From an uncultured virus (IMG/VR IMGVR_UViG_3300025782_000006) (Duplodnaviria; Heunggongvirae; Uroviricota; Caudoviricetes), in IMG/VR virus record IMGVR_UViG_3300025782_000006: DNA of 64,000 nt; one strand, given 5' to 3'. The position numbers and the translations under genes are program-made. A model generated the notes under the pieces. The model saw only the letters and a program-made list of their open reading frames with translations. It had not been told where the DNA came from and searched no databases. This document shows positions 12,608 through 44,947 of the stretch, piece by piece (within the stretch, counting starts at the first letter, position 1; each line of letters opens with the position of its first letter).

Positions 12608-12608
12608 T

Positions 12609-18589: not shown

Positions 18590-20514
<1,925 letters not shown>

Positions 20515-22108: not shown

Positions 22109-23002
22109 TTAATTAAGTTGTTCTAATATTGCGTTGGCTATACGTTGTGTATCAAACAGTTTGTTACAGCGGAAATCTCCATGTTGGCATACGATTCCAC
22201 GCACTGGTCGATCTTGTTTGACGTTGCAACCCACACAGTCAATATCGGCTTGTATAGCAGTCCAGTGCCATGTTGGATCCAAATGTCTAATAGGCATTAT
22301 ATACTCTGGAGGATTATGTGTCAACATTCCAATTACGTGTGTATTGCTGGCTCCAGCAATTTGAAATGGTCCCGAATCGATGCCCACAAAACAACGGGCA
22401 CCATCCAATAATACTTTTAATTGTTGTGGCGTGTACTGTGCGTTTTTATTCACAATCAAGGGATGATCCAGGCTCAAATCAGTGGGTCCGCCTACTGTAA
22501 CAATTTTGAAATCTGTGCGTACTTCAAACGCTTGAGCAAAGATATTGCACCATACGTCAATATCAATATTCTTCAGGGCCCAATGCCACTGACGCATATG
22601 AACAGCAATGTAGGGACTACCAATTTCCTTGATGTCTGCACTAACTAATTCCAGATCACTGTCAGTTGGATGTAGGTCGGGGTGGCGATCCATGACACTG
22701 GTATTATCACCAAACACTCGATAAAACATACTGTCAATAAAATGATTTTCTGGATTTAATTCGTAAGCGTCATCTAAGTTATAAACGACATCATAGTCTG
22801 CGGGATTACATTCGCCCCAGTTACGTAGATCTACAATGTAAGGATTGTTTTTATAGACTAATGGAAATTCTGTTTCAACGGTAATTGCACAACGGCCATT
22901 GTGATGTTTGTACAGTTCTCGGACTACACCGGTTGACATTACTACATCGCCCAATGCAGCACGTCGTTTAACTAAGATAGTGGTAGGAGTTTCAATCTTC
23001 AT
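22109..23002 (-). CDS. GT9 family glycosyltransferase
   Basis: RRAALGDVVM; FVGIDSGPFQIA; C-terminal Cys cluster. Confidence 0.8.
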   Translation of the reverse strand: MKIETPTTILVKRRAALGDVVMSTGVVRELYKHHNGRCAITVETEFPLVYKNNPYIVDLRNWGECNPADYDVVYNLDDAYELNPENHFIDSMFYRVFGDNTSVMDRHPDLHPTDSDLELVSADIKEIGSPYIAVHMRQWHWALKNIDIDVWCNIFAQAFEVRTDFKIVTVGGPTDLSLDHPLIVNKNAQYTPQQLKVLLDGARCFVGIDSGPFQIAGASNTHVIGMLTHNPPEYIMPIRHLDPTWHWTAIQADIDCVGCNVKQDRPVRGIVCQHGDFRCNKLFDTQRIANAILEQLN

Positions 23003-24227
23003 TGGTTTCTGTCACAATAGTTGGAAAATAACGCAGGAATATATCTTGTGCGTTGTTGCGTTTTGCTAGAATCTTCTTTTTAATTTCTGTGTAGAAATTC
23101 CATGCCAGCGGAACAAATACAACACGTTCTTTGGGATCAGTTATACTATCTAACCATTCGATACTGACCACAGGAATACTAGTGCCCGGGCAATATAGTC
23201 CTTGCTTTAAAGGATTGTCATCAATTACGCAGTCCAGGTGTATGTTACTGGCATTGATCAGTGTCATACCTTTAGCGGCAGCACCGTAACCAACAATAGT
23301 ATATCCCCAACCACGATACTCATCAATTTGATCTTTGAGTTGATCAATTAACTCCTGTACACCTGTAGCCCACTTTGTATAAGTCTCAGGTGTCTGTAGT
23401 CCTAGTGCTGATTCTACAGCTAGGATATTTTGAATACGTTCTTGATTAGCAGGTTGTTTGGCTAATATAAAGATATAGCTGGTTCCATGAATAGGAGTTT
23501 TAATTACATCAATTAAATATAGACCAGCACGTTCAGCCAGTCGGCGCATTGATTCTGCATTGTAGTAGCTGATATGCTCGTGATAGATGGTATCAAACTC
23601 ACCGTTAGGAACCATGTCAGCTTGACTGGTAGAAATAAAAATCTTACCTTCGTTGTTTAAGTGCTCGCGGCAAAGTTTTAAGTATGCCAGTGGATCTGGA
23701 ATATGTGCAAATGAATTTTGTGTAGTAATAACTGTAAACTTGGTATGTATGTTATCAGAGGTTTCTTTATCCCAAAATCTACACCATATGCGATGATTCG
23801 CACTAGACTTTTCGTATAAGTTTTCTGCTGGATCTACACCAAATGTCTTATAACCTAACTTCTTAAATGCATCTAATTGGCTACCATCATTACAGCCAAT
23901 GTCCAATACTGTACCCACCATTGGTTTAGCGAACTGTTCAGTTACAAAGCGAGCATACCAGTCCATGTATTCTACATAGGTATTTGATGTACCTGACACA
24001 TACAGATAGTGTGTGTAAATCAATTCAGGATTAACTGCGTGTGTAAGTTGTAGGTGATTACAGTCTTCACAACGATTAATAGCTAGGGGGAACCACTGAT
24101 CTGTATCACGTACTCCGCCATGCTCTTGAAAGCTGTTGGCCAAGGGTTGATCTTGGAGATCCAGGGTCAAGGTTAAGTCTTGGCCGCCGCAGGCCAAACA
24201 CTCATCGATTTGTGTGTAATCTTCCAT
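22992..24227 (-). CDS. NDP-sugar C-methyltransferase
   Basis: CLACG, CEDCNHLQL, LDIGCNDG, FDTIYHEH, HGTS, GYGAAAKG. Confidence 0.9.
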   Translation of the reverse strand: MEDYTQIDECLACGGQDLTLTLDLQDQPLANSFQEHGGVRDTDQWFPLAINRCEDCNHLQLTHAVNPELIYTHYLYVSGTSNTYVEYMDWYARFVTEQFAKPMVGTVLDIGCNDGSQLDAFKKLGYKTFGVDPAENLYEKSSANHRIWCRFWDKETSDNIHTKFTVITTQNSFAHIPDPLAYLKLCREHLNNEGKIFISTSQADMVPNGEFDTIYHEHISYYNAESMRRLAERAGLYLIDVIKTPIHGTSYIFILAKQPANQERIQNILAVESALGLQTPETYTKWATGVQELIDQLKDQIDEYRGWGYTIVGYGAAAKGMTLINASNIHLDCVIDDNPLKQGLYCPGTSIPVVSIEWLDSITDPKERVVFVPLAWNFYTEIKKKILAKRNNAQDIFLRYFPTIVTETNED

Positions 24228-24973
24228 TAATTTTTAATAGCAGTTCCGTTGGGAGCGATTGCCCCTTCAACACCAAGATTTTGAATTTCATGTACATGGT
24301 CGGGATTTAAGAACTTAGCAAGTACGTGTTCAATATCCACATATCCACCTGCAGCTAAACGTTCGGCAAAGAACAGGAAGCTATCTTCATATACACCAAT
24401 AACTTCGTCTAAGAGTGCAATAGGCCAAGACCATAAGCGAGCCATGTACTGGAATGGTACTTGTGTTACTTCTGGAGGGAATTGACTTTGATGTTTTGGT
24501 CCAATAATAATTTTATCTAAATTATCTGTTTGATCGTATGTAGCAGGATCAAACAAATCATTTAATATATAACGTCCAGACATTTTATGAATACGATTAA
24601 TTCCAACAAAGGCATTTTCTTGTTTGAGAATACGCAACACACGACCAAAACACATGATTTCTGTGCCGTTCTTTACTACGTCCCAATTATCATTGTCGTA
24701 CATGTCAATAACGTCTTGATCTTGGCTACAGTCAATGAACACGTCGCAGTTTTGTCTTATTACTGCTTCTTGATGTGGCTTAATCGAATCCCCACAGCAT
24801 TCCATTACTATAATTCTAGCATCAGGGATTTTACGCTTAATGCTATTGATAGTTTCAATAGTTTGATCTAACCGTTGCTTAGGTGCAAACACACCAAACT
24901 TACTGTTAATAGCTGAAGTTACGATAAAACAATGTTTTACTTGCTGAGCCATCTGTTGTTCTCCAATGTCCAT
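24227..24973 (-). CDS. Hypothetical protein, probable glycosyltransferase
   Basis: FIVTSAI, HKMSGRY, DIEH motifs; glycan-cluster context. Confidence 0.5.
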   Translation of the reverse strand: MDIGEQQMAQQVKHCFIVTSAINSKFGVFAPKQRLDQTIETINSIKRKIPDARIIVMECCGDSIKPHQEAVIRQNCDVFIDCSQDQDVIDMYDNDNWDVVKNGTEIMCFGRVLRILKQENAFVGINRIHKMSGRYILNDLFDPATYDQTDNLDKIIIGPKHQSQFPPEVTQVPFQYMARLWSWPIALLDEVIGVYEDSFLFFAERLAAGGYVDIEHVLAKFLNPDHVHEIQNLGVEGAIAPNGTAIKN

Positions 24974-25971
24974 AATGTCATTTCTTTAATGCGTTCGCTT
25001 AGTTTAATCTTAGGTTCCCACCCCAATGACTTTAACAATCCGCCATCTAAGGCATAGCGTAAGTCATGTCCAGGACGTGATCCGTGGAAGTCAACCATTT
25101 CGTAATTAAGTTCTTTACCTTGTGCTTCAGCAATCATCTTAGCTAAACTCAAATTATCAATTTCTTCTGTACCTACCAAGTTAAACTTAGGACAGTGAGC
25201 CCAACCGTAGTCACCTGTGTGTTTGTAGTCTTTTAAGTTAAGAATAAACATTAGGCCTTCGGCTACGTCTTTAGCATGGATATACATACGTGTGCCAGCT
25301 TCTGTGCAGTCTGCGTTGGCATGGATATAAATCTTTTCACCATCTCTAGCACGTTGAATACACATGGGAATAAATTTCTCTGGATGCTGACGCTCACCAA
25401 ACACGTTCATAGTATGTGTAACAACAATTGGCATTTTGTAAGTATTTTCATAAGCTACGCAAAACTCTTCTGCTGCCGCTTTTGATGCTGAGTATGGATT
25501 TGTTGAATTGTAACGATCGTATTCTTTGTAGCTAACTCCTGGAGGAGCAACACCAAAGATCTCGTCTGTTGAGAAATACACAAAGCGTTCTAAGTTAGGC
25601 AAGTTCTTACGTGCATAGTCTAACATATTAACTGTGCCAACTACGTTATCCTGCACAAACTCAAACGGATATTGAATTGAACGATCTACGTGTGATCCTG
25701 CGGCCAAATGTAGAACAATATCAACAGGACCAATGTCCTTGACAATCATTTCATTCAGTTCTGCTTTTAAATCATGGAATACAATACGCAAACGTTCAGC
25801 TACCATTTTAGGATCGTGATCCTGTAGCATATCGTGTAAGCGATTCAAGTTACCACTAATATCTAATCGGTCCAGACATACAATATTGTAGTCGGTTTCT
25901 TTGAGCATCTTATCGATTACATGGTGTGCGATGAAACCAGCACCGCCTGTTATCAGTACATTTTTTGACAT
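24937..25971 (-). CDS. rmlB: dTDP-glucose 4,6-dehydratase-like (RmlB)
   Basis: TGGAGFI, HLAAGSHVDRSI, STDE, YSASK, RPGHDLRYALD. Confidence 0.85.
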   Translation of the reverse strand: MSKNVLITGGAGFIAHHVIDKMLKETDYNIVCLDRLDISGNLNRLHDMLQDHDPKMVAERLRIVFHDLKAELNEMIVKDIGPVDIVLHLAAGSHVDRSIQYPFEFVQDNVVGTVNMLDYARKNLPNLERFVYFSTDEIFGVAPPGVSYKEYDRYNSTNPYSASKAAAEEFCVAYENTYKMPIVVTHTMNVFGERQHPEKFIPMCIQRARDGEKIYIHANADCTEAGTRMYIHAKDVAEGLMFILNLKDYKHTGDYGWAHCPKFNLVGTEEIDNLSLAKMIAEAQGKELNYEMVDFHGSRPGHDLRYALDGGLLKSLGWEPKIKLSERIKEMTLWTLENNRWLSK

Positions 25972-26047: not shown

Positions 26048-26521
26048 TTAGTCAATGATTGATTTAATTTTTTCTACATAGTCGCTACATATTCCGTAGC
26101 AGGAAGCCGATTTAATATTGGCAAATTCTGGATCCGACCATTCTGGCATCAACATAATGCTACGTTTGGATAAAGGTTTATCGGGATAAGTCCAAATGTA
26201 TTGATGACTAGTCAGAGTCTGTGTGTCAGACTCGTGCCAAAAGTAGTTTAAAGGTGTGTTGGTTAGATAGTATAGTGCCGCTAGATTTTTGGCATGTATC
26301 CATAGACCGTCGCTAGAAATAAATTCGTATTCTACATTATAAGTAGGAGCATCATGCCCTAAAAAGAATCCGCCATCCGATTTATACCAAAGATCAATTT
26401 CGCAGTCATATCCCTTGGATAATGCTAATTTAATTTGCTCAGGGCGATTTTCTAAATTACTATCAGGACCATTAAACAATCCGCGATGTGCTATCAATTT
26501 CATTGGTGATCCATTCTCCAA
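26048..26521 (-). CDS. Short PI-PLC/GDPD-like phosphodiesterase
   Basis: LIAHRG, EN, EIDLW, LGHD, WIHAKN, GICSDY. Confidence 0.7.
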   Translation of the reverse strand: MENGSPMKLIAHRGLFNGPDSNLENRPEQIKLALSKGYDCEIDLWYKSDGGFFLGHDAPTYNVEYEFISSDGLWIHAKNLAALYYLTNTPLNYFWHESDTQTLTSHQYIWTYPDKPLSKRSIMLMPEWSDPEFANIKSASCYGICSDYVEKIKSIID

Positions 26522-27198
26522 CGACCCCGGTATTCACCTTTATTCCATTGTGGCTCTACTATAAATGGCAAGCACTCATAGTCTATGCCCGTAACTTTAA
26601 AATACTTTTCCAGGCTTTCTTCTGGATGTATAAACTCAAATGTATCTGCTAAGTGATCTAGGTAATCCCAGTAACCCACAAAACGTTCATACATTTCTGG
26701 ACTACCAAATAAAAAATTATCAGCAAAGTTTTGAGCATTGATCATTTTAGTTTTAACTTTTTCAGCATAGTCACGTAGGTCAACTTCACCACGTGGTACC
26801 ATGTCTGTACGCATACGGAACACCATATCGTACTGTTCACCTGTTTCAGCCACATACTCTTTAAATAAGCGATGACTTTCCACAATTCCCCACCACATGG
26901 TAAGAAAGTTAGGTGCCCAGTGTGCTATCTGTAGAGGCCTACGTGGAGGATGTGCATACTGTGGTCCATCCTCTAGGACCTGCACTACTTTAAATTGACA
27001 AGTGTCTGGAATACCCTCACTACGCAAATAGTTTACAAACTGATCAGCATTTAGGCCAAATTCACTACGCCATGTGCGTATAAAAAAGTCCGCTTGGTCA
27101 AATCCTTTGAGAGCGTCAACCAGTCTAAATAGTCCACGATGTTCGAATCTTGGACCACCGCTTAAACAAAATGCTATCTTCATAAATTCTTTCCCCAA
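26500..27198 (-). CDS. Hypothetical protein, probable glycosyltransferase
   Basis: MKIAFCLSG.PR, YDMVFRMRTD, HPE motifs. Confidence 0.55.
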   Translation of the reverse strand: MGKEFMKIAFCLSGGPRFEHRGLFRLVDALKGFDQADFFIRTWRSEFGLNADQFVNYLRSEGIPDTCQFKVVQVLEDGPQYAHPPRRPLQIAHWAPNFLTMWWGIVESHRLFKEYVAETGEQYDMVFRMRTDMVPRGEVDLRDYAEKVKTKMINAQNFADNFLFGSPEMYERFVGYWDYLDHLADTFEFIHPEESLEKYFKVTGIDYECLPFIVEPQWNKGEYRGRWRMDHQ

Positions 27199-27740
27199 CC
27201 TAGACCGTTTCTCATAAAATTATTACCAAACATTTCATTTACTGCACGCACAACTCCTTCAGATCCACGAGTGTGACCATAATCGTCCCCAGCAATAGTA
27301 CCGCCAGGTTTAACTTTAGGTAACCATGCTTTAATGTCAGCTAGTACACCTTCATACAAATGATCGCCATCAATGAATACAAAATCCAAACTAGCATCAG
27401 GGTATGTTGCGGCCGCACTAACACTATCCATACGTACAGCACGATAATATCCCTCTACAGGTTTCATATTAGTAATGAATTCATCATATAGTGTATCATT
27501 AACTACACTGGTATCAGTTTGATGCAATTCTTCGTTTGGGGTACCACGCCAAGTATCAACACAATCAAATTTAATGTCTTTACCACTGTTGATAATCTCA
27601 ACTGCCATGAATGCGGCGCTTTGTCCCCGCCAGGATCCTATTTCAACAAAGTGGCTTCCTGTAGGGAAGTATTCAACCATACCCTTGTAGATATCAAAAA
27701 AACTGCACCAGCCTTGTATATTTTGATAAAAATGATTCAC
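27180..27740 (-). CDS. Class I SAM methyltransferase (Methyltransf_24-like)
   Basis: FVEIGSWRGQS, DFVFIDGDHLYE, VKPGGTIAGDDY. Confidence 0.85.
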   Translation of the reverse strand: MNHFYQNIQGWCSFFDIYKGMVEYFPTGSHFVEIGSWRGQSAAFMAVEIINSGKDIKFDCVDTWRGTPNEELHQTDTSVVNDTLYDEFITNMKPVEGYYRAVRMDSVSAAATYPDASLDFVFIDGDHLYEGVLADIKAWLPKVKPGGTIAGDDYGHTRGSEGVVRAVNEMFGNNFMRNGLGWGKNL

Positions 27741-28969
27741 TATTTAATCAAACCCCATTTAGCAATAGCTTGATCGTACTCAGGACCGTATGTCTTATCT
27801 ATTGCTTGACGCATAGCTGTGGCTCCCGCTACTGTACCGCCTGGATGTCCGTGTACTGCTCCGCCTGCGTTGGCTAGATAATCTTGGCCAGCAATTTCTG
27901 TAACTTTTTCTACCAGGCCGGGATGGAATCCACAGCTTAGAGCAGGAACAGTATTACCTGCACGTAGAATATCTAGACATTCTTTAATCTCTTCTGGGTC
28001 ATCATTGCTATATCCGCCAACCATGCCTGTTTGTATAGTGTCGGCGCCCATCAGAGTAGCTAGCTGACACATAACTGGCCAACTGATACTAAAGCGATGA
28101 TTAACATCTGTGGTAACTTTGGCACCAGAACTTTGATAGTGCAAGTACAATGGCAAATCTAATTTGCGAATACTGTTATAACTACCATAGCCAGAGAATA
28201 CATTGATATGCACACCTGTTCCGCCTAACTCATGCACACGCTTAACACGATCGACTAACACATGCGGGTCGCAGTTAATAGTATGGCAAAATACGATCTT
28301 ACGTGATTGTTTTGCTAGATAGTTAGCAATAATATCTACACGACGATCCAATGGCGCACACGCAGGATTAACCATGATTTCATCTTCTTTGATAAAATCG
28401 ACCCCACCGTCAACCATCTGTTTGACCATCTCTAATAATACTTCAGGAGTAATACCAATCTTAGGTTTTACAATACTACCAAACAAAGGTTTTCCGTATT
28501 GGCCGGTTAATGCTCTAAATCCTGTGATACCAAACTTGGGTCCTAAGAAATGCTGTGTAACTGTTTCAGGAAGTTCTAATTTAATTAATCGGCAACTGTT
28601 AAAACAATCGATATCAACGTGTCCGCCCATGAGCTGGCATAACATATGAGCGACCCCGTCTGTTGCCCAGTCTGTGTTAGCCACAGGGAAAGCAATTTCT
28701 ACGTTGCCCCATACACGATTTTCAAGGTCTTTTTTATCACCTAGGATGATACAACTGTGATTTTCAAATAGGTCATCTGTTTCCCACTCATTGCGTACAC
28801 TGGGATTTCCTACGCTTTGCCCGATAGCTAAATTCCATGCGGCGTCATCTAAGCTAGTCTTACTAGTAATTTTATATGTTGCTATGTAATACTTAGATAA
28901 ATCTATTTCACTGCGGTCACGGTAAAACTTCATACTTGTCTCCAATAATACTTGGTCGTTTAACGACAC
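27740..28969 (-). CDS. RuBisCO-like protein (form IV RLP)
   Basis: GPKFG, GSIVKPKIG, GGVDFIKEDE, SCGFHPG, AGGAVHGHPGG; start probably MKFYRD (~28933). Confidence 0.92.
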   Translation of the reverse strand: MSLNDQVLLETSMKFYRDRSEIDLSKYYIATYKITSKTSLDDAAWNLAIGQSVGNPSVRNEWETDDLFENHSCIILGDKKDLENRVWGNVEIAFPVANTDWATDGVAHMLCQLMGGHVDIDCFNSCRLIKLELPETVTQHFLGPKFGITGFRALTGQYGKPLFGSIVKPKIGITPEVLLEMVKQMVDGGVDFIKEDEIMVNPACAPLDRRVDIIANYLAKQSRKIVFCHTINCDPHVLVDRVKRVHELGGTGVHINVFSGYGSYNSIRKLDLPLYLHYQSSGAKVTTDVNHRFSISWPVMCQLATLMGADTIQTGMVGGYSNDDPEEIKECLDILRAGNTVPALSCGFHPGLVEKVTEIAGQDYLANAGGAVHGHPGGTVAGATAMRQAIDKTYGPEYDQAIAKWGLIK

Positions 28970-29243
28970 AAACTCTACAATCCTCTAAGAACTCTGGGTC
29001 AGCAACGTCACCAGGTTCAAACCAAAATATATCGCCGGCTTCTACAATCTCCCCAGCAATACGCATACGTCCGTCTAATAATACATTGTATTCTGTAGCG
29101 TGTTTATGATAGTGTGCAGGCCACGCTTCGCCTTTACGATGTGTAAGTATGCCTACTTCAAATAAGGGAGTACGCATAACAGAGGGTTCAAAGTCGCCAA
29201 TGAACCAACCACGTGTCATATCAGAAAGTTTTGCTGTTTTCAT
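28917..29243 (-). CDS. Cupin-domain protein
   Basis: RGWFIGDFEPS, HYHKHATEYN. Confidence 0.8.
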   Translation of the reverse strand: MKTAKLSDMTRGWFIGDFEPSVMRTPLFEVGILTHRKGEAWPAHYHKHATEYNVLLDGRMRIAGEIVEAGDIFWFEPGDVADPEFLEDCRVCVVKRPSIIGDKYEVLP

Positions 29244-29943
29244 ATCTTAAAAATTCATCTAAGTCATCAGGCACGCCTACGGGATGATGGAACTGATTGG
29301 GTATATGATAAATGCCCACAGTCCGTCCCTGTGCTATCATATGATTATAACTTGGTCCTATGTAAAACTCCCCATTAGGTGCTCGATCGTTTGCTGCAAT
29401 CATTGCTTCTGCGGCCTCTACAAAGTAGCGACCTTTCTTCCAGTAATGAATGCCATTTAATGATATATTACTTATCACTTGCTTTTCGCGGATCTCCCGC
29501 ACAAGGCCTTCTTTGTTTACACGAGCATAACTGTTTTTATCTGTATCTGCATGATAGGTAACTACAGCACCATCATAGTGACGGACATAATCTAAAAATC
29601 TATCGCTAGTCCATTCCATGATTTGATCACAGTTAGCAATAATTAGTTCTTCATCTGTGTTAATATCGTCTTTGAATAACAAGGCTGTGCTTGCAGGACC
29701 TTCTGTTACATAGTCAATGGCCAAATAACGGCTGTTGGGCTTGAATGATTCAATCATAGCCAAGACGCCTTCAGTATGCTCGTCTTTGCGAACAATAAAG
29801 TGCCACTGTCCATCTATATCCAAACTTTCTACAGCACGCTGGATCATTGGTCGACCGTTGATGTCAATAAGTGGTTTGGGAATTAAAATGCGTTTTTCAG
29901 CAAATCGGCTACCGCGACCCGCCATTGGGATAATTATATTCAT
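29221..29943 (-). CDS. Sugar-phosphate nucleotidyltransferase
   Basis: IPMAGRGSRF..PKPLI, TEGPAST, IANCDQ, EKQVIS, NGEFYI. Confidence 0.85.
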   Translation of the reverse strand: MNIIIPMAGRGSRFAEKRILIPKPLIDINGRPMIQRAVESLDIDGQWHFIVRKDEHTEGVLAMIESFKPNSRYLAIDYVTEGPASTALLFKDDINTDEELIIANCDQIMEWTSDRFLDYVRHYDGAVVTYHADTDKNSYARVNKEGLVREIREKQVISNISLNGIHYWKKGRYFVEAAEAMIAANDRAPNGEFYIGPSYNHMIAQGRTVGIYHIPNQFHHPVGVPDDLDEFLRYENSKTF

Positions 29944-34690: not shown

Positions 34691-34766
34691 TGGTGCCCTC
34701 TGTCGGATTCGAACTGACCACCTACTGATTACAAATCAGTTGCTCTACCTAATGAGCTAAGAGGGC
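34691..34766 (-). tRNA. tRNA-Thr(TGT)
   Basis: Cloverleaf; ACTGA-TTTGTAA-TCAGT; CCA end. Confidence 0.92.
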
Positions 34767-34791
34767 ATAATACTATATTTAATACTAATAA

Positions 34792-35032
34792 GTTTGAGCA
34801 GACTAAAATCTGCTTTTCGACAGTGGACCACAATGCTAACGGGTTGCGATCCCGCAATAATAGCTCGCCTTCCCAGGCTCTTTCATGGTATCTAGCAACG
34901 CTTTCACAGTTTTAAAATTTCTTATACCCTCGGAAGTATCCGATATTGCCTTGCCAGGCCACGGGGCTGGTACTACGACTGTTACTCACACTCCCACATG
35001 TATCAGATGGTCGCCACACCGTCTGCTCAAAC
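34792..35032 (-). ncRNA. Candidate ~240-nt structured RNA
   Basis: Perfect 12-bp terminal inverted repeat GTTTGAGCAGAC/GTCTGCTCAAAC enclosing several GC-rich hairpins; lies between tRNAs; strand inferred from context. Confidence 0.5.
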
Positions 35033-35042
35033 TTATTAATTC

Positions 35043-35129
35043 TGGCGGAGAGTATAGGAGTCGAACCTATCCACCCATTGCTGGATGACGCCTTAGCAGG
35101 GCGTTGCCTTACCGCTCGGCCAACTCTCC
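35043..35129 (-). tRNA. tRNA-Ser(GCT)
   Basis: ACGCC-CTGCTAA-GGCGT; long variable arm; CCA. Confidence 0.92.
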
Positions 35130-35137
35130 CAAAACTT

Positions 35138-35335
35138 TTATTCAGCGGCTTCTGCTGTTTCTACTACAGGTGCTACATAACCTAAATCACGAATTCTACG
35201 TTCAATTTTGGCTTTGACCTTTTTCTTACTGGTTGTAGCCAGTAACTCAGTTAATTGTTTACCACTTAAACTAACAATCTTTACTCGGCCATCTTTTGTA
35301 TAACCAGGTTTTTTACGTTGTAAATTTTTTGACAT
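35138..35335 (-). CDS. Small basic hypothetical protein
   Basis: 65 aa; AGGA RBS. Confidence 0.6.
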   Translation of the reverse strand: MSKNLQRKKPGYTKDGRVKIVSLSGKQLTELLATTSKKKVKAKIERRIRDLGYVAPVVETAEAAE

Positions 35336-35343
35336 TCCTGTTC

Positions 35344-36423
35344 CTAATTTAAAAAATATCTCGTTAATATGTCTTGCGTAACACTAAAACTTTCATTGAT
35401 TATAACATCTTTGTCTATGTCTTGCAAGATATCTATCAAATGTTTGTAAGCTGAATTAGCCACTTTTTGAAACTGCTGTCGATTGTGTTCGCTGGGCTTT
35501 GGTTTACCACAGGTCTTTAAACTCTCCACTAGTCGATCTGCACGTTCTAGAGGATACTCTATAAGATCGTAAGACTCATCTATCACTTGACCAAATGTTT
35601 CAAATCCTAAACCTTGTAGTTTACGTAGACTATGCTGACCGCCGTATACCACAAATGGGTGTCCTAACATCAAACTCTTATAAGTCTTTTCTGTAGGGAA
35701 CCATTCATTCTGTGTTGTTTCGCTTACAATGCTTATCTCAGTATTGTAGTAGTGACTGGGATAGTAAGCATAGAAACGGAAATCTGGGTGTACAAAGGGA
35801 TCTGGCCAATCATCATCAGGACCAAATCCATCTGCACTTTTACCTGACCTATGACTCCATATGCTAGAGTCTAGTAATCCAGCCGCTTTAAATAAATCAA
35901 AAAAACGTTCTCTATTGTTACGGAACTCTCCGTTGAAGAATAGAAACTTATGTGTTTTTGTTACTGTATCAATACGTTTACACGTATATTCTAAACGAGC
36001 ACGATTAAACTCGTTGTTGATGATCCACGCAAAGAACTCCGGCATGTTATAGTTCTTTACGTAACCATCTATATCCCAATCGCCGCACTTGATTAAATGA
36101 CCGTTAATGTTCTTTGCCTGTAATGCTTCAGCAGTAGGACAAAAACTTGCCGATAGTGTTGCGTAGCTTTCGCTAGGGTAATAAAATATAATATCATTGT
36201 TTCGTCCCGCGGCTTTCTCAAGGATACTGGAGGCAATAGCATTTCCAGGATCACCACAGGGGGTTTCCATAAGGAAACAGTCTGTAATAATGGTTCCACC
36301 ATCAGGTACTGCATCTACGTTGCATTCAACGTAGTCCACCCCGTACAGGTCTAGCGTAGCACGTAATAGATCAGCTTGCTTTTCTGCTGGACGTTTAAGT
36401 GGGTGTAAGATTAAGTATAACAT
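35344..36423 (-). CDS. Hypothetical protein, 'TEKT' family (possible GT-B glycosyltransferase)
   Basis: IVSET...FPTEKTYK...HPFVVYG...GFETF...DESYD; start moved to ATG 36423 because the upstream extension lies in a tRNA. Confidence 0.6.
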   Translation of the reverse strand: MLYLILHPLKRPAEKQADLLRATLDLYGVDYVECNVDAVPDGGTIITDCFLMETPCGDPGNAIASSILEKAAGRNNDIIFYYPSESYATLSASFCPTAEALQAKNINGHLIKCGDWDIDGYVKNYNMPEFFAWIINNEFNRARLEYTCKRIDTVTKTHKFLFFNGEFRNNRERFFDLFKAAGLLDSSIWSHRSGKSADGFGPDDDWPDPFVHPDFRFYAYYPSHYYNTEISIVSETTQNEWFPTEKTYKSLMLGHPFVVYGGQHSLRKLQGLGFETFGQVIDESYDLIEYPLERADRLVESLKTCGKPKPSEHNRQQFQKVANSAYKHLIDILQDIDKDVIINESFSVTQDILTRYFLN

Positions 36424-36426
36424 GTT

Positions 36427-36500
36427 TGGTTGCGGGTTCTGGAATCGCACCAGAGACTAGGGCTTATGAGACCCTCGAGATACTCCTTCTCCAACCCGCG
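36427..36500 (-). tRNA. tRNA-Met(CAT), initiator-like
   Basis: C1:A72 mismatch; AGGGT-CTCATAA-GCCCT; atypical T-loop TGCGATT. Confidence 0.8.
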
Positions 36501-36508
36501 ATAGTTTT

Positions 36509-36727
36509 TTATTTTACTTTTGCTAGATAATCTGTCATGTTCAGATTACCCGACTGTGCTTCTAATAATGCATCTACTGCGGTTACAAATCCATTGTTTT
36601 CTTTAGCACGTACTTTAAGTTCTCTTGTACGTTGTGCCGCGGCAATAACCAAATCAAAACGACCTTGCCCAGTTTTTTCAACGCACTTTTCAACATCTAC
36701 CTGTGATGCACGAGTTTCTTTTTTCAT
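36509..36727 (-). CDS. rpoZ: RNA polymerase omega subunit homologue
   Basis: VEKCVEKTGQGRFDLVIAAAQRTREL...DALLEAQSG resembles the omega pattern [20 protein letters not shown]...ALREIEEG. Confidence 0.75.
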   Translation of the reverse strand: MKKETRASQVDVEKCVEKTGQGRFDLVIAAAQRTRELKVRAKENNGFVTAVDALLEAQSGNLNMTDYLAKVK

Positions 36728-36750
36728 TGTAGCCTTATGGTTAAGTTATT

Positions 36751-36836
36751 TGGTGCGACTGGCCAGAATCGAACTGGCACTCCATTATAGAATCAGATTT
36801 TAAGTCTGACGTGTCTACCGATTTCACCACAGTCGC
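36751..36836 (-). tRNA. tRNA-Leu(TAA)
   Basis: TCAGA-CTTAAAA-TCTGA; long variable arm; CCA. Confidence 0.92.
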
Positions 36837-36861
36837 AGTAGTATACTATTATAGAGGTTTT

Positions 36862-37368
36862 TTAAGACTTTGTCAAATATTTTAAGATTCTATCTGGACC
36901 TAATGCAAAGTATTGCCGTTTTGGTTTGCAATAGTTCTTAAATGAAAAATTTTTATCTAACGGATTACTATATACCTTTACAATTTCATTGTTTTCAAAT
37001 AGTGCAACGTATTGCCAGAGTCGAGTTAACTCGTCAAGATCTCGATCAGTTCCAACGTAATTTTTTATTCGTAGTGTAAATTGACTGTCACTATCAACTA
37101 TTGGGATTAGGTCCGGTCCGTGGATATCAACATATGGAATTAGGAACGCAGTATTGCTTACCGCACAAACATGATCTACTCCCGAGTCTTTTAACTCCGA
37201 GTGTGCTGATTGATATCTTTTAATTTGATCCCAAGAATTGATGTTTGCTGGCAGTGGCAAACTAAAAACCACTGTGCGACAGCCCGTAAAAAGATCTGCA
37301 TAATCATTACAATTATGCAGTCCTTTAAGTTTTTTAGTATTTAGATTTTCTTGAAAATCAACAGCCAT
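36862..37368 (-). CDS. Degenerate peroxiredoxin/redoxin-fold protein
   Basis: DLFTGCRTVVFSLP, SGVDHVCAVS, DSDSQFT; the PGAFTPTC active-site motif is absent. Confidence 0.55.
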   Translation of the reverse strand: MAVDFQENLNTKKLKGLHNCNDYADLFTGCRTVVFSLPLPANINSWDQIKRYQSAHSELKDSGVDHVCAVSNTAFLIPYVDIHGPDLIPIVDSDSQFTLRIKNYVGTDRDLDELTRLWQYVALFENNEIVKVYSNPLDKNFSFKNYCKPKRQYFALGPDRILKYLTKS

Positions 37369-37372
37369 TGAA

Positions 37373-38377
37373 TTACGATTTAATAATACCGTCCAATAGT
37401 CCTGCTTGGAAGAACGTTTGATACTTATCGTATAATGGCTTAGTTAGTTCTTTATACTGTGCTGTTTCTTCTTCAGTTAATTCACGGTATGTAACACCGA
37501 TATCATCGTGATTATCTTTAGCAGCAAATTCTTCAGAATCATTAACTGACCATTGACGTTCAAGTTTGCTTGCGTATAAACTTGCTTCTGTAAATGCCTG
37601 TTGATCAACGGCGTCCAAAGACTCCCAGAAACTCTTGCTAATAATAATACTTGTTAAGAACAAATTATGTTTTGTATTAATAAGATGTTTTTTGTTTGTG
37701 CCTTGGAACTGTGCTAGATAACGTGGAATTGTTGTTTCTAATAAGTTGGCATTAAACCCTTCTTCAGCCACTTTCTTGGCCCAATCTCTAATAGAGAATG
37801 ATTCAGGTTTACTACCCAATGCTTGTACAGTATCTACTGTTACTGGATTAGTACCAATAGCATAAACTAATCCTTTCATGTCCTCTAAACTATTAATAGG
37901 AGTTTCAGAAGCCACACAGCGGAAACCACCAGAGTAAGTAAATGCCATGCCCTTAGCCGGACTATTTTCTTCTACTGAATCTAACAGGCCTTTACCAATT
38001 GGTCCTTCAAACACACGAGTTGCATGATCATGATCACGGAATAAGAATGGCATCTCAAGTACCCAAAAATCTGGATTACACCACATAGCTAATTCATTGA
38101 TATGAACTTGACTAATTTCAATGTTTCCTTGTTCCATTTCAACGATTGGGCCGTTGTCTCGGTAAAAGTTACCCATATTGCCTTTGTACTGTTCATGCTC
38201 TTTTGCCACTTGGTCAAAGTAATGTGTTGGGGTAAAAATTTCAATTTCGTATTTTCCATCAGTTAATTCAGCAATTTTAGCACTAAACGCTTCGGCTGTA
38301 CGCAGGAATAGTTTCACAGGCTCGTGTGCGATTAACCAACGGATTTTTCTTGTTTGACTCATTTGGGGATTCTCCAC
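37373..38377 (-). CDS. TRAP transporter DctP-like solute-binding protein
   Basis: LEMPFLFRDHDHA, YSGGFR, PINSLEDMKG, FWESLD; no signal peptide. Confidence 0.8.
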   Translation of the reverse strand: MENPQMSQTRKIRWLIAHEPVKLFLRTAEAFSAKIAELTDGKYEIEIFTPTHYFDQVAKEHEQYKGNMGNFYRDNGPIVEMEQGNIEISQVHINELAMWCNPDFWVLEMPFLFRDHDHATRVFEGPIGKGLLDSVEENSPAKGMAFTYSGGFRCVASETPINSLEDMKGLVYAIGTNPVTVDTVQALGSKPESFSIRDWAKKVAEEGFNANLLETTIPRYLAQFQGTNKKHLINTKHNLFLTSIIISKSFWESLDAVDQQAFTEASLYASKLERQWSVNDSEEFAAKDNHDDIGVTYRELTEEETAQYKELTKPLYDKYQTFFQAGLLDGIIKS

Positions 38378-38448
38378 TTTCGTAGTAAGATTATATAGTA
38401 TTATTTATGTCAATAAACAACTTTCAATCAAAACTCAACAATAAATAG

Positions 38449-39756
38449 TTGTATCTTAGTAGTAATCAATCAATGTCAAATAAAATAGAACATACTTCCG
38501 CTGGCGGAATCCGCTTTGAACCAAATAAAAAATTAGGTTATTACATTGTTAATAATGAAATTTATTACAATAAAAATCAGGCCATGCTAGCTGGATCTAA
38601 ATATCCAATTGATGTTGGCGGGTTAAACAATGATCCGGTACGTTGGATGTTCAATGAAGATACTTTTTTAAAGTTTCCCTGGCACATAGAACCTCAAGTT
38701 CCCCTCAACGAACTATACCGTATTCGTGCTCAACAGCTTAGAGACCAGTACGATTACATACGCTTAGAACTCAGTGGTGGAGCTGATAGCACGACCGTAG
38801 CCTATGCATTTTTATTAAATGGTATACACTTAGACGAAGTTGTGTTTCGTTATCCTAAGTCCGGTTCTAAGAATTTTTCAGGTGATCCGTGGGATACCGA
38901 AAGTCGAAATCATCTAAGCGAATGGGAATTTGCGGCCCGACCCTTGTTAGAATGGATTGCCACTAATTATCCTAAAGTTAAAATAACTGTACACGATTTT
39001 GTTGACGAGATTGTTAAAGAACAGGCCAACGACGAAAACTGGATTTATAAAACACGGCATTACATACATCCTGGTCATGTACACAAACACACTATAGATA
39101 AAACCTTAGCAGATACTGGTAAACGTATTGGTGTAGTCTACGGTATTGATAAGCCTAAGATCTGTGTCAAAGATGGTAAGTTTTTTATATACTTTGTAGA
39201 TACACAGGCCAGTAACAATCATCCCGAAGTGGGTGATTATACTAATATTACCAACGAATTTTTCTACTGGTCTCCTGATGCTTGCGAACTGTTGGCCAAA
39301 CAGGCACATGTGATTAAGACCTGGTTTAGTATGCCAGCACATCATAATATGAGTCATGTTTTGCAATGGCCCAATCAAGATTACAGCACGCGGACCTTTC
39401 GAGAACAAATACTTAAACCTATCATTTATCCTGATTACGATTTTAGTACATTCCAAACTGCTAAAAGTACTACATCACTCTACGCAGAAATGGATAGTTG
39501 GTTTTTTACTAATTTTCGAGATACCGATTTATATGCAACCTGGACAGCAGGCATAGATTATTTAGAAAAAAATCTCAATGAAAGATATTTTAAGTCTTTT
39601 CAAAATACAATTATGGATATTAAACAGTACCAATCGCCATTTTATTACATTGGTGATAGTACTATTAAAAATTCTAAACCGTTTCAGCCCACAAAACAAC
39701 AGATACAGCAATCTCGGCACATACATTATATACGTGGTCGTTTAGAAATATATTAA
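38449..39756 (+). CDS. PP-loop (adenine-nucleotide alpha hydrolase-like) protein
   Basis: LSGGADS motif; paralogue of 46419..47552. Confidence 0.6.
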   Translation: MYLSSNQSMSNKIEHTSAGGIRFEPNKKLGYYIVNNEIYYNKNQAMLAGSKYPIDVGGLNNDPVRWMFNEDTFLKFPWHIEPQVPLNELYRIRAQQLRDQYDYIRLELSGGADSTTVAYAFLLNGIHLDEVVFRYPKSGSKNFSGDPWDTESRNHLSEWEFAARPLLEWIATNYPKVKITVHDFVDEIVKEQANDENWIYKTRHYIHPGHVHKHTIDKTLADTGKRIGVVYGIDKPKICVKDGKFFIYFVDTQASNNHPEVGDYTNITNEFFYWSPDACELLAKQAHVIKTWFSMPAHHNMSHVLQWPNQDYSTRTFREQILKPIIYPDYDFSTFQTAKSTTSLYAEMDSWFFTNFRDTDLYATWTAGIDYLEKNLNERYFKSFQNTIMDIKQYQSPFYYIGDSTIKNSKPFQPTKQQIQQSRHIHYIRGRLEIY

Positions 39757-39758
39757 TT

Positions 39759-39848
39759 TGGCGGAAGCGGTGAGATTCGAACTCACGGACCTTTTACAGT
39801 CGACAGTTTTCAAGACTGTTGCAATCAACCGGGCTCTGCCACGCTTCC
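39759..39848 (-). tRNA. tRNA-Ser(TGA)
   Basis: ACAGT-CTTGAAA-ACTGT; long variable arm; CCA. Confidence 0.92.
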
Positions 39849-39854
39849 ATTGTT

Positions 39855-39936
39855 TGGTACCCCAGACGGGACTCGAACCCGCACAGTACTGTCTCTTGAA
39901 CAGTTGCGTCTACCTAGTATTTTGCGCCACTGGGGT
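39855..39936 (-). tRNA. Atypical tRNA, Leu-like (anticodon AAG or offset CAA)
   Basis: Acceptor ACCCCAG/CTGGGGT; T-arm; Leu-type GGTAGACGC; loop TCAAGAG; short variable loop. Confidence 0.65.
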
Positions 39937-39938
39937 GT

Positions 39939-40013
39939 TGGTGGTAATAGTTAGATTCGAACTAACGACCTGCGCCGTATGAAGGCGATGCACTACCGCT
40001 GTGCTATATTACC
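39939..40013 (-). tRNA. tRNA-Met(CAT)
   Basis: CGCC-TTCATAC-GGCG; CCA. Confidence 0.85.
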
Positions 40014-40027
40014 ATATTGAAACACAC

Positions 40028-40219
40028 TTAATAAATGTACTTTAATATGGTAGGACCGGTCAGACTTGAACTGACAACCTCGAAGTTAAAAGCCTCTTGC
40101 TCTGCCTTTGAGCTACGATCCCTCTGTTTCGTTAGCTTACGTAGAGCTTTATTGCTCTTGCGGTGCGAGCCCGCCTTCCGTTTACTAGCTAGTACAGCAT
40201 AAATGTTTCTTTGTTTCAT
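40028..40219 (-). CDS. Small basic protein whose frame reads through tRNA-Lys
   Basis: Strong RBS AAGGAG; MKQRNIYAVLASKRKAGSHRKSNKALR. Confidence 0.5.
   Translation of the reverse strand: MKQRNIYAVLASKRKAGSHRKSNKALRKLTKQRDRSSKAEQEAFNFEVVSSSLTGPTILKYIY
40048..40122 (-). tRNA. tRNA-Lys(TTT)
   Basis: Loop CTTTTAA; CCA. Confidence 0.88.
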
Positions 40220-40239
40220 TTTACTTCTCCTTTTTAAAT

Positions 40240-40314
40240 TGGTCCGGCGTAGAGGAATCGAACCTCTATTGAGAGATTAGAAGTCTCCAGTATTATCCAT
40301 TATACTAACGCCAG
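40240..40314 (-). tRNA. tRNA-Arg(TCT)
   Basis: GGAGA-CTTCTAA-TCTCT; CCA. Confidence 0.9.
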
Positions 40315-40315
40315 G

Positions 40316-40391
40316 TGGGGTAACTGATGGGATTCGAACCCACGACAACTGGAATCACAATCCAGGATTCTACCGCTGAACTACAGTTACC
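40316..40391 (-). tRNA. tRNA-His(GTG)
   Basis: CTGGA-TTGTGAT-TCCAG; G-1 and C73. Confidence 0.92.
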
Positions 40392-40397
40392 ATTGTT

Positions 40398-40473
40398 TGG
40401 TGCCTCCTCCTGGTTTCGCGCCAGGCTATCCAGCTCTTCAGACTGGCGCTTTCACTAGATTAGCTTAAGAGGC
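40398..40473 (-). tRNA. tRNA-Phe(GAA)
   Basis: CCAGT-CTGAAGA-GCTGG; atypical T-loop CGCGAAA. Confidence 0.85.
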
Positions 40474-40475
40474 AT

Positions 40476-40549
40476 TGGTAGAGGTACAAGGACTCGAACC
40501 TTGAATGACGGAATCAAAATCCGTAGTGTTGCCATTACACCATACCTCA
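40476..40549 (-). tRNA. tRNA-Gln(TTG)
   Basis: ACGGA-TTTTGAT-TCCGT; CCA. Confidence 0.9.
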
Positions 40550-40560
40550 ATTGTAGAATT

Positions 40561-40968
40561 TTAATTCCTCTGCCATTTAATTCTATTCCAGATTCTTTCA
40601 TGTACTATGTTTAAGCTAGTATTTACAACCAGCTGTATCGTAGCAAAACTTCCCGATGTAGTTAAGTTACCAGTAAAATAATAAGTAATTCCTGTGGCAG
40701 TGGCAAACATAATTATTCGCCATACTATAGTTTTAACTATTGTTCTTGCGTGACTTTCGTGTAAGTCACTAATACCCCAGTTGACTCTAAGCCATGCTCT
40801 TTCATGTAGGGCATATAAAATAGTATTAATAATCAATTGACTCAATGCTATCGAACCAGATATAACAAAATTTTTAGTCAGCAAGTATGCAGTTATAACA
40901 CCGACAAGTGTTGTATAAGTGCGCCAAGTTATTGTTTTGACTAACGTACGGGTTGGGTATTCAATCAT
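40561..40968 (-). CDS. Tandem DUF2061-like membrane protein
   Basis: Two copies of RT.VKTI.WR...HER.W....W. Confidence 0.8.
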   Translation of the reverse strand: MIEYPTRTLVKTITWRTYTTLVGVITAYLLTKNFVISGSIALSQLIINTILYALHERAWLRVNWGISDLHESHARTIVKTIVWRIIMFATATGITYYFTGNLTTSGSFATIQLVVNTSLNIVHERIWNRIKWQRN

Positions 40969-40992
40969 ACTGATTCTTTCTTTAAGTTATTA

Positions 40993-41069
40993 TGGTCGGA
41001 GTGGCAAGATTTGAACTCGCGACATCTGCGTCCCAAACGCAGCGGTCTACCGGGCTGACCTACACTCCG
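40993..41069 (-). tRNA. tRNA-Pro(TGG)
   Basis: CTGCG-TTTGGGA-CGCAG; CCA. Confidence 0.92.
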
Positions 41070-41074
41070 ATGTA

Positions 41075-41148
41075 TGGTGGAGGATGAGAGAATCGAACTC
41101 TCAATCTCGGCTTGCAAAGCCGATGTTATCCCATTTAACTAATCCCCC
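41075..41148 (-). tRNA. tRNA-Ala(TGC)
   Basis: TCGGC-TTTGCAA-GCCGA; G3:U70. Confidence 0.92.
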
Positions 41149-41152
41149 AATT

Positions 41153-41228
41153 TGGTACAAGGTAAAGGGATCGAACCTTTGACCTACGGCTTGTAAGGCC
41201 GCCGCTCTACCAGCTGAGCTAACCTTGC
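41153..41228 (-). tRNA. tRNA-Val(TAC)
   Basis: GCGGC-CTTACAA-GCCGT. Confidence 0.92.
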
Positions 41229-41238
41229 ATAATTCATT

Positions 41239-41315
41239 TGGCCGGCCCTGACGGATTCGAACCGCCAACCGCTAGTTTCGAAGACTAGAACTCTAATCCA
41301 TTGAGCTAAGGGCCG
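41239..41315 (-). tRNA. tRNA-Arg(TCG)
   Basis: CTAGT-CTTCGAA-ACTAG. Confidence 0.9.
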
Positions 41316-41318
41316 ATT

Positions 41319-41396
41319 TGGAGCAACGGGTAGGATTTGAACCTACGGCTTTCAGGATTTGCAGTCCCGTGCATTGGGCCACTCTGCCACCGTTGC
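41319..41396 (-). tRNA. tRNA-Cys(GCA)
   Basis: CGGGA-CTGCAAA-TCCTG; U73. Confidence 0.92.
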
Positions 41397-41402
41397 ATTG
41401 TT

Positions 41403-41479
41403 TGGTGCCTCGACCAAGACTCGAACTTGGGACCCCCGCGTTATCAACACGGTGCTCTAACCAACTGAGCTATCGAGGC
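41403..41479 (-). tRNA. tRNA-Ile(GAT)
   Basis: CCGTG-TTGATAA-CGCGG. Confidence 0.92.
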
Positions 41480-41483
41480 TGAT

Positions 41484-41645
41484 TGGTGCCGGTTGATTGG
41501 CTCAAGCCGGCAAAGCCTGTTACATTGCAGGACCGTTGCCGTTCCTGAATCCCACTACACCACCTTCGGCCTGTCTGACGCTGTTCTATCCTGCCAGAAG
41601 AAGTCTCCAAAGTGGTTGAGTTTGGATGACGCTGTTAGATGGTGA
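41484..41645 (-). ncRNA. Candidate ncRNA ending in a CCA minihelix
   Basis: 3' end GCCGGCTTGA-GCCAA-TCAACCGGC-ACCA; GC-rich, ORF-free; spaced like a tRNA gene; 5' boundary uncertain. Confidence 0.4.
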
Positions 41646-42020
41646 TTATTTTGAACTGAGTTGCTCGATGCGAGCGATTGATTCGGGTGTTGCTTCTTCA
41701 TCGAGTCCTTCTTGCCGCTGGGTATCAAATGCTATTTTCCAGGTTTTAGGATCAGGATTGGTAGCACTCATGTTTCCTTGATGATTACGATTGTATTCAG
41801 CCATTGCTTGTTCGGCATTCATATCAGTCAACACTCTTGCGTAGAACCAGGCCTGATGCCAAGTAAACGGATCAATCCATTTGTTTTCACTTTTTGCTTG
41901 TGCTAACGCTGGTTCTAACCGAGGGTCGTGCGGCAATGTTCTGTCTTTCTTAAAGCGGTCAAAGATACCCTCGTGGATCTTGCCATCTACTAAGTCAATG
42001 TATTCTCTAAGTGTTTTCAT
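41646..42020 (-). CDS. Hypothetical protein (possible head-internal protein)
   Basis: MKTLREYIDLV...EGIFD; C-terminal LDEEATPESIARIEQL. Confidence 0.55.
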   Translation of the reverse strand: MKTLREYIDLVDGKIHEGIFDRFKKDRTLPHDPRLEPALAQAKSENKWIDPFTWHQAWFYARVLTDMNAEQAMAEYNRNHQGNMSATNPDPKTWKIAFDTQRQEGLDEEATPESIARIEQLSSK

Positions 42021-42161
42021 AATAATATTTAGTTTAACATAAGATATTCTATTTGTCAAGTCCTAAAAAGTGCGTGTGTCCGTGGATAGATGATAAATAA
42101 AAGTGTAGTTCGCGGTGGTGGAACACCCAACTACTCTAACGCAACAAAGGAGCGATCAGCA

Positions 42162-43470: not shown

Positions 43471-43484
43471 ACTCGCCTCCTTTC

Positions 43485-43943: not shown

Positions 43944-43963
43944 AATGCCTCCTTTTTTTGTTT

Positions 43964-44039: not shown

Positions 44040-44046
44040 ATTGTAT

Positions 44047-44122: not shown

Positions 44123-44126
44123 AAAT

Positions 44127-44924: not shown

Positions 44925-44947
44925 GTAAACAAAATGGTAATAACTTA

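Follow-up and report, generated by a model that had tools for sequence, protein, structure and literature searches.

The RuBisCO-like protein (RLP) described here is encoded in a 64,000-nucleotide stretch of DNA, hereafter the window, from an uncultured virus of the Caudoviricetes (IMG/VR record IMGVR_UViG_3300025782_000006). Its gene lies in a chain of seven overlapping minus-strand genes encoding, in order, a glycosyltransferase of family 17 (GT17), a sugar-phosphate nucleotidyltransferase (NTase), a small cupin, RLP, a methyltransferase, a DUF7796-like protein and a GDPD-like protein. The NTase and cupin genes share 23 nt, and 17 nt of the cupin gene are common to it and the beginning of the RLP gene. 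A preliminary description, made from the DNA letters, had pointed out the overlapping NTase, cupin and RLP genes with the GDPD-like gene nearby, and all four minus-strand open reading frames were recovered in place. Our results point to a very probable role of this cassette in building a glycan encoded by the phage, through synthesis and transfer of a nucleotide-activated sugar. The best reading of the role of RLP, which we put at slightly less than an even chance, is that it turns a pentulose-5-phosphate into a pentulose-1-phosphate, thereby feeding the synthesis of a nucleotide-activated ketose.

The most likely start of RLP is the ATG at 28933 (397 aa) and not the GTG at 28969, because the identical database protein has 397 residues and the best 120 relatives have 383-405, nearly all of them 396-397; the RLP of record IMGVR_UViG_3300025418_000839 is a 100% match to that of the window. 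The AlphaFold model (pLDDT 88) corresponds to a complete RuBisCO large subunit; compared with form III enzymes and RLPs, its TM-scores are 0.80-0.87, and PF00016 is found above its cut-off. Active-site positions were mapped by alignment to the form I enzyme of C. necator and are given in spinach numbering. K175 (K156 in RLP), K177 (K158), K201 (K182), D203 (D184) and E204 (E185) are kept, as is the first phosphate site (K175, S379, G381, G403, G404). H294 is replaced by Q267, R295 by S268, H298 by A271, H327 by Q301 and K334 by Y308, with further substitutions at E60 (G38), T65 (N43), N123 (G104/H105) and G380 (C334), and the second phosphate site is lost (R295S, H298A, H327Q). The kept lysines and carbamate/Mg motif, and the changes at H294, H327 and K334, had been read by eye beforehand, and the alignment bears them all out. 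The loss of H327 is nevertheless a trait of the window's sub-branch and not of the clade, as H327 is kept in 96 of 136 clade sequences; together with the loss of R295, it is peculiar to this branch.

The alignment indicates that the active site has been rebuilt under selection and is not decaying, because the following residues are near-invariant across the clade: K156, K182, D184, E185, S333 and G335 are present in 137/137 aligned sequences, and Q267, Y308 and C334 in 136, the sole outlier having the MtnW pattern and being taken as the MtnW reference. Two combinations recur, Q105/K268/D271/H301 (89/136) and H105/S268/A271/Q301 (29/136). Among the 136 sequences, histidine is found at 301 (the H327 site) only in 93, at 105 (adjoining the N123 site) only in 39, at both positions in three and at neither in one. 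This swap suggests one required acid/base, but it may stem from one or two events.

By these residues the window RLP is no carboxylase, as the preliminary description had held: the residues at H294, K334, E60, N123, R295 and H327 all differ from those of the carboxylases. Form III RuBisCOs do take the top ranks in Foldseek (TM 0.87), and databases use the name 'ribulose-bisphosphate carboxylase large chain' for such proteins. That RLP is a carboxylase after all, or that it has no catalytic function and acts as a sink which takes up ribulose bisphosphate and redirects host carbon flux, is however extremely unlikely. H294, K334, E60 and N123 are absent in the clade, the score against the curated form III model TIGR03326 is 168 for a cut-off of 497, and the RLP gene is tightly coupled to an NTase gene in heterotrophs, for example Pelagibacteraceae and DPANN archaea. 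Viral 'RuBisCO' genes annotated under that name as carbon-fixation genes would thus be mis-annotations that this clade explains.

In a FastTree phylogeny of 89 proteins (midpoint root), the window RLP and a protein of Beckwithbacteria (L080) belong to one clade of 59 rows with a support of 100, and form I, MtnW and OiaX all lie outside. At E<=0.001, 2085 relatives were found, a figure that includes other RuBisCO forms, and no match to RLP was present in 50,697 GenBank phage records or in PHROGs. A phage RLP is not new, because the main text of Jaffe et al. (2019; PMC6389311) describes about 80 phage 'form IV-like' sequences grouping with Beckwithbacteria and leaves their function unclear; by its grouping, the window RLP matches the description of that clade. 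The preliminary suggestion that a viral, biosynthetic RLP role had not been described therefore stands in part only: phage RLPs are published, but the words nucleotidyl, glycosyl, polysaccharide, cupin, phosphodiesterase and giant do not occur in that main text, the supplement of which has a phage genome figure that may show gene context. In the literature searched, which left out most subscription journals, we found no proposed substrate for the RLP clade and no report of the NTase/GDPD/RLP cassette or its function.

Another role for RLP could lie in methionine salvage, either as an MtnW-type enolase or as a methylthioribulose isomerase acting with a cupin methylsulfurylase, by-products of the SAM (S-adenosylmethionine)-dependent enzymes of the surrounding gene island being recycled. 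The pairing of an RLP with a cupin is that reported for R. rubrum (PMC6302742, as far as its text was available), many methyltransferase genes lie nearby, and the closest PDB sequence match is 4NAS, an RLP annotated as MtnW. This is nevertheless very unlikely. The clade is split from MtnW with a support of 100, K177 is kept and H294 lost, so that the clustering with MtnW named beforehand as a refutation is not observed; the MtnW signature V177, H294 and P295, with a lysine at the N123 site, is not found in the window RLP, which scores 161 against the MtnW model (cut-off 409) and 148 against that of OiaX (cut-off 700). Furthermore, no upstream salvage gene was found among the 57 window proteins scanned, the cupin also occurs without RLP, and the fusion partner of RLP is an NTase.

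Conservation of the neighbourhood was assessed in 65 viral RLP loci, many of them near-copies (19 of the 58 full-length proteins are left below 80% identity), and in 47 cellular loci obtained by an alignment scan, a single-sequence genome scan having given none; some of the latter may be viral contigs binned into genomes. The cellular loci belong to Pelagibacteraceae, DPANN archaea, Patescibacteria, Legionellaceae, Azospirillum and others; in L106, from the cultured Azospirillum oleiclasticum, GDPD, RLP, cupin and NTase are all present. An NTase gene accompanies RLP in 59/65 viral and 43/47 cellular loci, a GDPD gene in 51/65 and 27/47, and a cupin gene in 45/65 and 14/47; a DUF7796-like gene is found in 25 of the viral loci, and a methyltransferase of another family in 36. 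Five of the six viral loci without NTase end inside the RLP gene, the exception being L048. RLP is also fused to NTase in one protein (P0122) and to GDPD in another (P0157), and in a fragment (P0160) a domain that by eye is GT9-like is fused ahead of RLP. The cupin is present in RLP-free versions of the cassette as well. The cassette core is thus RLP and NTase, often with GDPD, and the cupin is not specific to RLP. Of the NTase-cupin-RLP trio proposed in the preliminary description, the coupling to NTase holds in viruses, bacteria and archaea, down to a fusion, but the cupin, given the above counts, is an optional partner; the glycan-biosynthesis setting put forward for RLP genes is supported by gene context. 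The cassette was also seen in records labelled as giant-virus metagenome-assembled genomes (GVMAG) (L057-L060, L062, L064), and in L058 the neighbouring genes resemble by eye those for PCNA, eIF4E, RFC and eIF4A.

The position of RLP can be narrowed by what replaces it. Partners were counted in the best 80 loci for each anchor, with 5 kb flanks, out of at least 557 loci for NTase, at least 589 for GDPD and 243 for the cupin. Around NTase, 61 of these 80 loci have a HAD only, 14 RLP only, and one each PMM, HAD with PfkB and RLP with HAD, two having none. Around GDPD, the counts are HAD 46, PfkB 12, PMM 5, RLP 4, HAD with PfkB 1 and none 12, RLP never occurring with a substitute. Around the cupin, they are RLP 62, RLP with HAD 7, HAD 3, PfkB 1 and none 7. 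Among families, the substitute HAD scores best with TIGR02009 (beta-phosphoglucomutase family), although below cut-off; the PMM-like gene (PF03332 at 7e-20) lies between cupin and GDPD, RLP being absent from all six PMM loci (5 contigs); and PF00294 was matched in four of five PfkB genes tested. PfkB loci have a KdsC-like phosphatase gene just upstream (15/15), mostly an RpiB domain fused to NTase (14/15), and no RLP (0/15). In one of them, L208:2294-5444, as in 14 similar loci, KdsC-like phosphatase, PfkB, NTase-RpiB fusion, cupin and mini-GDPD make up an RLP-free viral version of the cassette. In a FastTree phylogeny of NTase (131 rows, from 274 distinct domains thinned at 75% identity), an RLP-linked group (support 97) is nested in a clade (support 95) whose members are mostly fused to HAD, and no fewer than 11 changes of partner are needed.

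A mutase, or a kinase together with a phosphatase, is an established route from a sugar-5- or 6-phosphate to a sugar-1-phosphate. Because the slot of RLP otherwise holds a mutase or a kinase and phosphatase, the simplest view is that RLP brings about the same net conversion, and we consider it somewhat probable that it supplies a sugar-1-phosphate. The interchangeable partners would thereby narrow the job of RLP to one reaction.

The window NTase matches NTP_transf_3 in Pfam (E 9.5e-8), and its profile finds PDB 4EVW at E 4e-34, the next family reaching only 5e-9; GxGxR, K23, D106 and E153-K154 are conserved. H44, E51 and N53 of the cupin are invariant in 16 sequences, and the cupin is fused to NTase in five GVMAG loci (L057, L058, L060, L062, L064). 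The GDPD-like protein, which has no Pfam match, had received that label in the preliminary description, and its predicted model (pLDDT 97), in which GDPDs are the best match (1O1Z, Z 11.3, rmsd 3.1, 138 residues aligned), agrees with it. The catalytic set H6-R7, E35-x-D37 and H50 is invariant in what is modelled as a PLC-like barrel about 70 residues shorter than solved GDPDs; on this model the protein is a member of the GDPD superfamily.

The same GDPD fold, together with weak matches of the NTase to IspD/cytidylyltransferases, would also suit a cassette making an NDP (nucleoside diphosphate)-polyol or a polyol-phosphodiester block, as in a teichoic-acid-like decoration, GDPD editing or recycling phosphodiesters and RLP isomerising a keto precursor. 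Trios of the KfoE type discussed below do adjoin genes for CDP-glycerol glycerophosphotransferases in two E. coli loci (L066, L122). We find this improbable, however, as no reductase recurs among the neighbour clusters of the cassette and the NTase profile is closer to sugar-1-phosphate transferases than to IspD.

Two links bear on which sugar is made. The first is the RpiB domain fused to NTase in PfkB loci: RpiB/LacAB is a family of aldose-ketose phosphate isomerases, and the fusion thus points to the phosphate of a ketose, which is probably a pentose. The second is with the capsule of E. coli K4. L124 is a K4-type locus, as identified by exact matches to both published kfoE deletion primers. 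Its kfoE (10270-12615) is split by IS1, and the C-terminal part of KfoE is, judging from relatives, APH-kinase-like and not transferase-like. The gene directly after kfoE (L124:12612-13337) belongs to the window NTase subfamily (28% identity, E 3e-17; profile independent E-value 3.4e-35), and the gene before the HAD-kfoE pair (L124:8415-9848) to the window DUF7796-like family, as found by profile (independent E-value 3.7e-19), the pairwise match being only E 0.015. Deletion of kfoE is reported to strip the beta-fructofuranose branch from the K4 capsule (PMC7429809, PMC8858990, in the parts available). Both links hold at the level of families, and identity is low. A product of the ketose type is therefore plausible for the window cassette as well, with a likelihood that we would set a little under one half.

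GDPD is absent from 6/6 bacterial loci of the KfoE type, which have a kinase and a small HAD, and present in 3/3 HAD-type controls. Neither an APH-type kinase nor a small EcbF/BcbF HAD was found within 6 kb on each side of RLP in L001, a record identical to the window. In the O-antigen cluster of E. coli O78 (L125:4798-10728), WavE occurs with a trio of small HAD, kinase and NTase; this trio would predict an acid-labile ketofuranose branch. A search with the O78 NTase returned only O78 and K4-type loci. In the text available of PMC7685785, xylulose is given for O95 and O97 only and genes for NDP-xylulofuranose (NDP-Xulf) are said not to have been identified. The HAD and GDPD version of the cassette was sought in relation to E. 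coli serogroups with known xylulose or fructan O-antigens; blastn against E. coli genomes found no match, and plasmids gave none to mini-GDPD. In the literature searched as above, no donor is given for fructofuranose or xylulofuranose branches.

In the pathway that we propose, the carbamylated Lys-Mg centre of RLP would enolise a ketose phosphate and move its carbonyl by two 1,2-proton transfers, a pentulose-5-phosphate from the host pentose pathway thus giving a pentulose-1-phosphate. This biosynthetic chemistry is drawn from gene context, and finds its analogue in the RLP of R. rubrum, reported to convert 5-methylthio-ribulose-1-phosphate into 1-methylthio-xylulose-5-phosphate by carbonyl migration (MTRu-1-P 1,3-isomerase), a cupin MTXu-5-P methylsulfurylase acting next (PMC6302742, as far as available). 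The window RLP would catalyse this reaction reversed and sulfur-free, with a phosphomutase-like net effect while the phosphate stays untouched. A reversed isomerase would fit the intact enolisation centre, the single phosphate site and the substitutes. NTase would then couple the sugar phosphate to a nucleoside triphosphate, as expected from its family, and mini-GDPD would, by way of a 1,2-cyclic phosphate, shift the phosphate on O1 to the anomeric O2, a second NTase turn giving the NDP-2-ketofuranose. The whole route would thus run from ketose-1-phosphate through NDP-1-ketose, 1,2-cyclic phosphate and ketose-2-phosphate to NDP-2-ketose, and the DUF7796-like protein would transfer the activated ketose. 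The GDPD fold works through cyclic phosphates. The GDPD step is proposed because in a ketose donor the phosphate has to sit on O2, where a kinase of the K4 type could place it directly, and 1-phosphate cassettes tend to carry GDPD; as written, it is nonetheless doubtful. A second NTase gene, present in many SAR11, DPANN and proteobacterial loci, would fit two NTase turns.

Several observations weigh against this reading. L048 (viral) and L077 (cellular) have no NTase despite full flanks. RLP and HAD, the latter mostly with an intact DxD, occur together in seven of the best 80 cupin-anchored loci and in 7/65 RLP-anchored viral loci; two NTases are present in several such loci, but only one in L024 and in L050. 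The 89/136 clade members that keep K295 and H327 are perhaps able to bind a second phosphate, H294 is lost, and the residue set is common to no characterised RLP, that of R. rubrum lying outside the alignment. PfkB, phosphatase and RpiB could equally yield an aldopentose-1-phosphate, and the K4 NTase, at 28% identity, is on a different subfamily branch, the role of that gene being putative. Finally, partner counts are clumped by phylogeny. An independent-pairs test on the NTase tree gave a median p of 0.125, which is not significant, and as it is near circular and drops partnerless rows it is not taken as support; nor is a Fisher value of 6e-12, which ignores relatedness.

Part of these observations would be accommodated if RLP reshaped the sugar skeleton, by C3 epimerisation, by a ketol rearrangement that yields a branched sugar, or by elimination of phosphate from a bisphosphate, a HAD of the host or cassette then giving the 1-phosphate and the product being an unusual aldopentose or a branched NDP-sugar. 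Such a product would come near to the idea of the preliminary description. RLP with an intact HAD and one NTase in L024 and L050, and K295/H327 in 89/136 members, would fit such a role, as would the C-methyltransferase for branched sugars in the island and the inclusion, in the available text of PMC6302742, of apiose-catabolism decarboxylases among characterised RLPs. A HAD, if needed, should however accompany RLP, and does so in only 7/65 viral and 1/47 cellular loci, and the PfkB and PMM versions of the cassette never occur with RLP (0/16 and 0/6). We regard skeleton reshaping as possible but rather unlikely.

Taken as a whole, the 1,3-isomerase reading would make the RLP clade a sulfur-free pentulose-phosphate 1,3-isomerase which, with NTase and mini-GDPD, forms a second, kinase-free route to an NDP-ketofuranose of the xylulose or ribulose type in phages, giant viruses, SAR11 and DPANN archaea. 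This complete proposal is speculative, and we hold it unlikely in all its parts together. If true, it would give the RuBisCO fold its first biosynthetic role, that of building glycans, in a superfamily where few functions are assigned beyond carbon fixation and those met in the literature searched are salvage or catabolic, and it would reveal the donor chemistry of ketofuranose branches. The cassette family also bears on the activation of fructose and xylulose for bacterial polysaccharides. The protein clade is already published; new here are the three alternatives that stand in for RLP, the clue from RpiB, the K4 link as verified by primers and the specific reaction proposed.

Table 1. Features of the cassette and its glycan island in the window.
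Position	Strand	Feature	Basis
29221-29943	-	sugar-phosphate nucleotidyltransferase (NTase), 240 aa	PF12804; 4EVW subfamily
28917-29243	-	small metal cupin, 108 aa, optional cassette member	PF07883 (Cupin_2) E 5.5e-5
27740-28933	-	RuBisCO-like protein (RLP), 397 aa, form IV-like clade	RuBisCO_large E 6.5e-37
27180-27740	-	SAM-dependent methyltransferase (Methyltransf_24/TylF-like)	PF13578 E 2.9e-21
26500-27183	-	DUF7796-like protein, 227 aa, candidate transferase	Atlas neighbours with DUF7796 in 13-27% of members
26048-26503	-	miniature GDPD-fold phosphodiesterase, 151 aa	predicted model and catalytic residues
29940-30806	-	glycosyltransferase family 17 (GT17), overlaps NTase start	PF04724 E 3.4e-27
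24937-25971	-	dTDP-glucose 4,6-dehydratase-like, glycan island	TIGR01181 E 3e-69, below cut-off
22992-24227	-	NDP-sugar C-methyltransferase, context	PF08484, PF08421
30857-33250	+	NDP-sugar epimerase/decarboxylase, GT34 and SDR genes, context	Pfam

The window comes from a large phage of the T4-like kind, with a T4-type terminase, a UvsW-like helicase, RecA and 25 tRNAs. The GT17, GT34, GT9, epimerase and methyltransferase genes nearby suggest a virion or host-surface glycan as the acceptor, and the cassette glycan may alternatively serve DNA modification. At 22992-25971, the C-methyltransferase gene adjoins the dTDP-glucose 4,6-dehydratase gene, the two making up a route of their own to a C-methyl-branched deoxysugar. 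Phage-encoded groES and groEL (18590-20514) adjoin the glycan island; chaperonins are often required by proteins with the RuBisCO fold. Further away, 25 tRNA genes lie at 34691-47767, three with anticodon CAT and one a 97-nt tRNA-Asn (44828-44924); among them is a gene for a DctP-type TRAP transporter solute-binding protein (37373-38377, E 2.4e-38). Two related proteins (38449-39756 and 46419-47600) have an SGGxDS motif, PP-loop-like by eye, with no Pfam match at 0.001. T4-like terminase, RecA/UvsX, radical SAM and 2OG-Fe(II) oxygenase genes lie at 51605-63979.

The cassette and its RLP can finally be compared with known systems. Like the form IV-like clade described by Jaffe et al. (2019; PMC6389311), as far as its text is available, RLP is phage-encoded, divergent and outside forms I-IV, with key residues partly kept and partly changed, but here the clade also extends to Pelagibacteraceae, DPANN archaea, Legionellaceae, Azospirillum and GVMAG records. 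MtnW of Bacillus, a DK-MTP-1-P enolase, and OiaX of Rhizobium, a 3-oxo-isoapionate-4-P decarboxylase, share with it the RuBisCO fold, K175, K201-D203-E204 and the first phosphate site; they differ in belonging to other clades, in keeping H294 with K177 replaced and in their catabolic or salvage context, and the window RLP is under their cut-offs. The RLP of R. rubrum, presumably of another clade than that of the window, resembles it by functional analogy only: a pentulose monophosphate substrate, interconversion of 1- and 5-phosphate by carbonyl migration and a cupin next in the pathway; its context, in contrast, is sulfur salvage, with a methylthio substrate and no NTase.

Among NTase systems, region 2 of the K4 capsule locus (L124) shares the NTase subfamily and the DUF7796-like family with the window, in the order DUF7796-like gene, small HAD (TIGR01689), kfoE and NTase, but it has an APH-type kinase and a small HAD, and no RLP, GDPD or cupin. 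Related too are the HAD-NTase-GDPD cassettes of cyanophages S-CAM9 and B3, Azospirillum lipoferum, and Pseudomonas and Scandinavium plasmids (L068-L070, L365, L366), no characterisation of which was found in the literature searched. They share NTase, the GDPD fold and DUF7796/WavE partners with the window, and in L365 and L366 the cupin as well, and differ in having a beta-phosphoglucomutase-family HAD at the slot held by RLP in the window.

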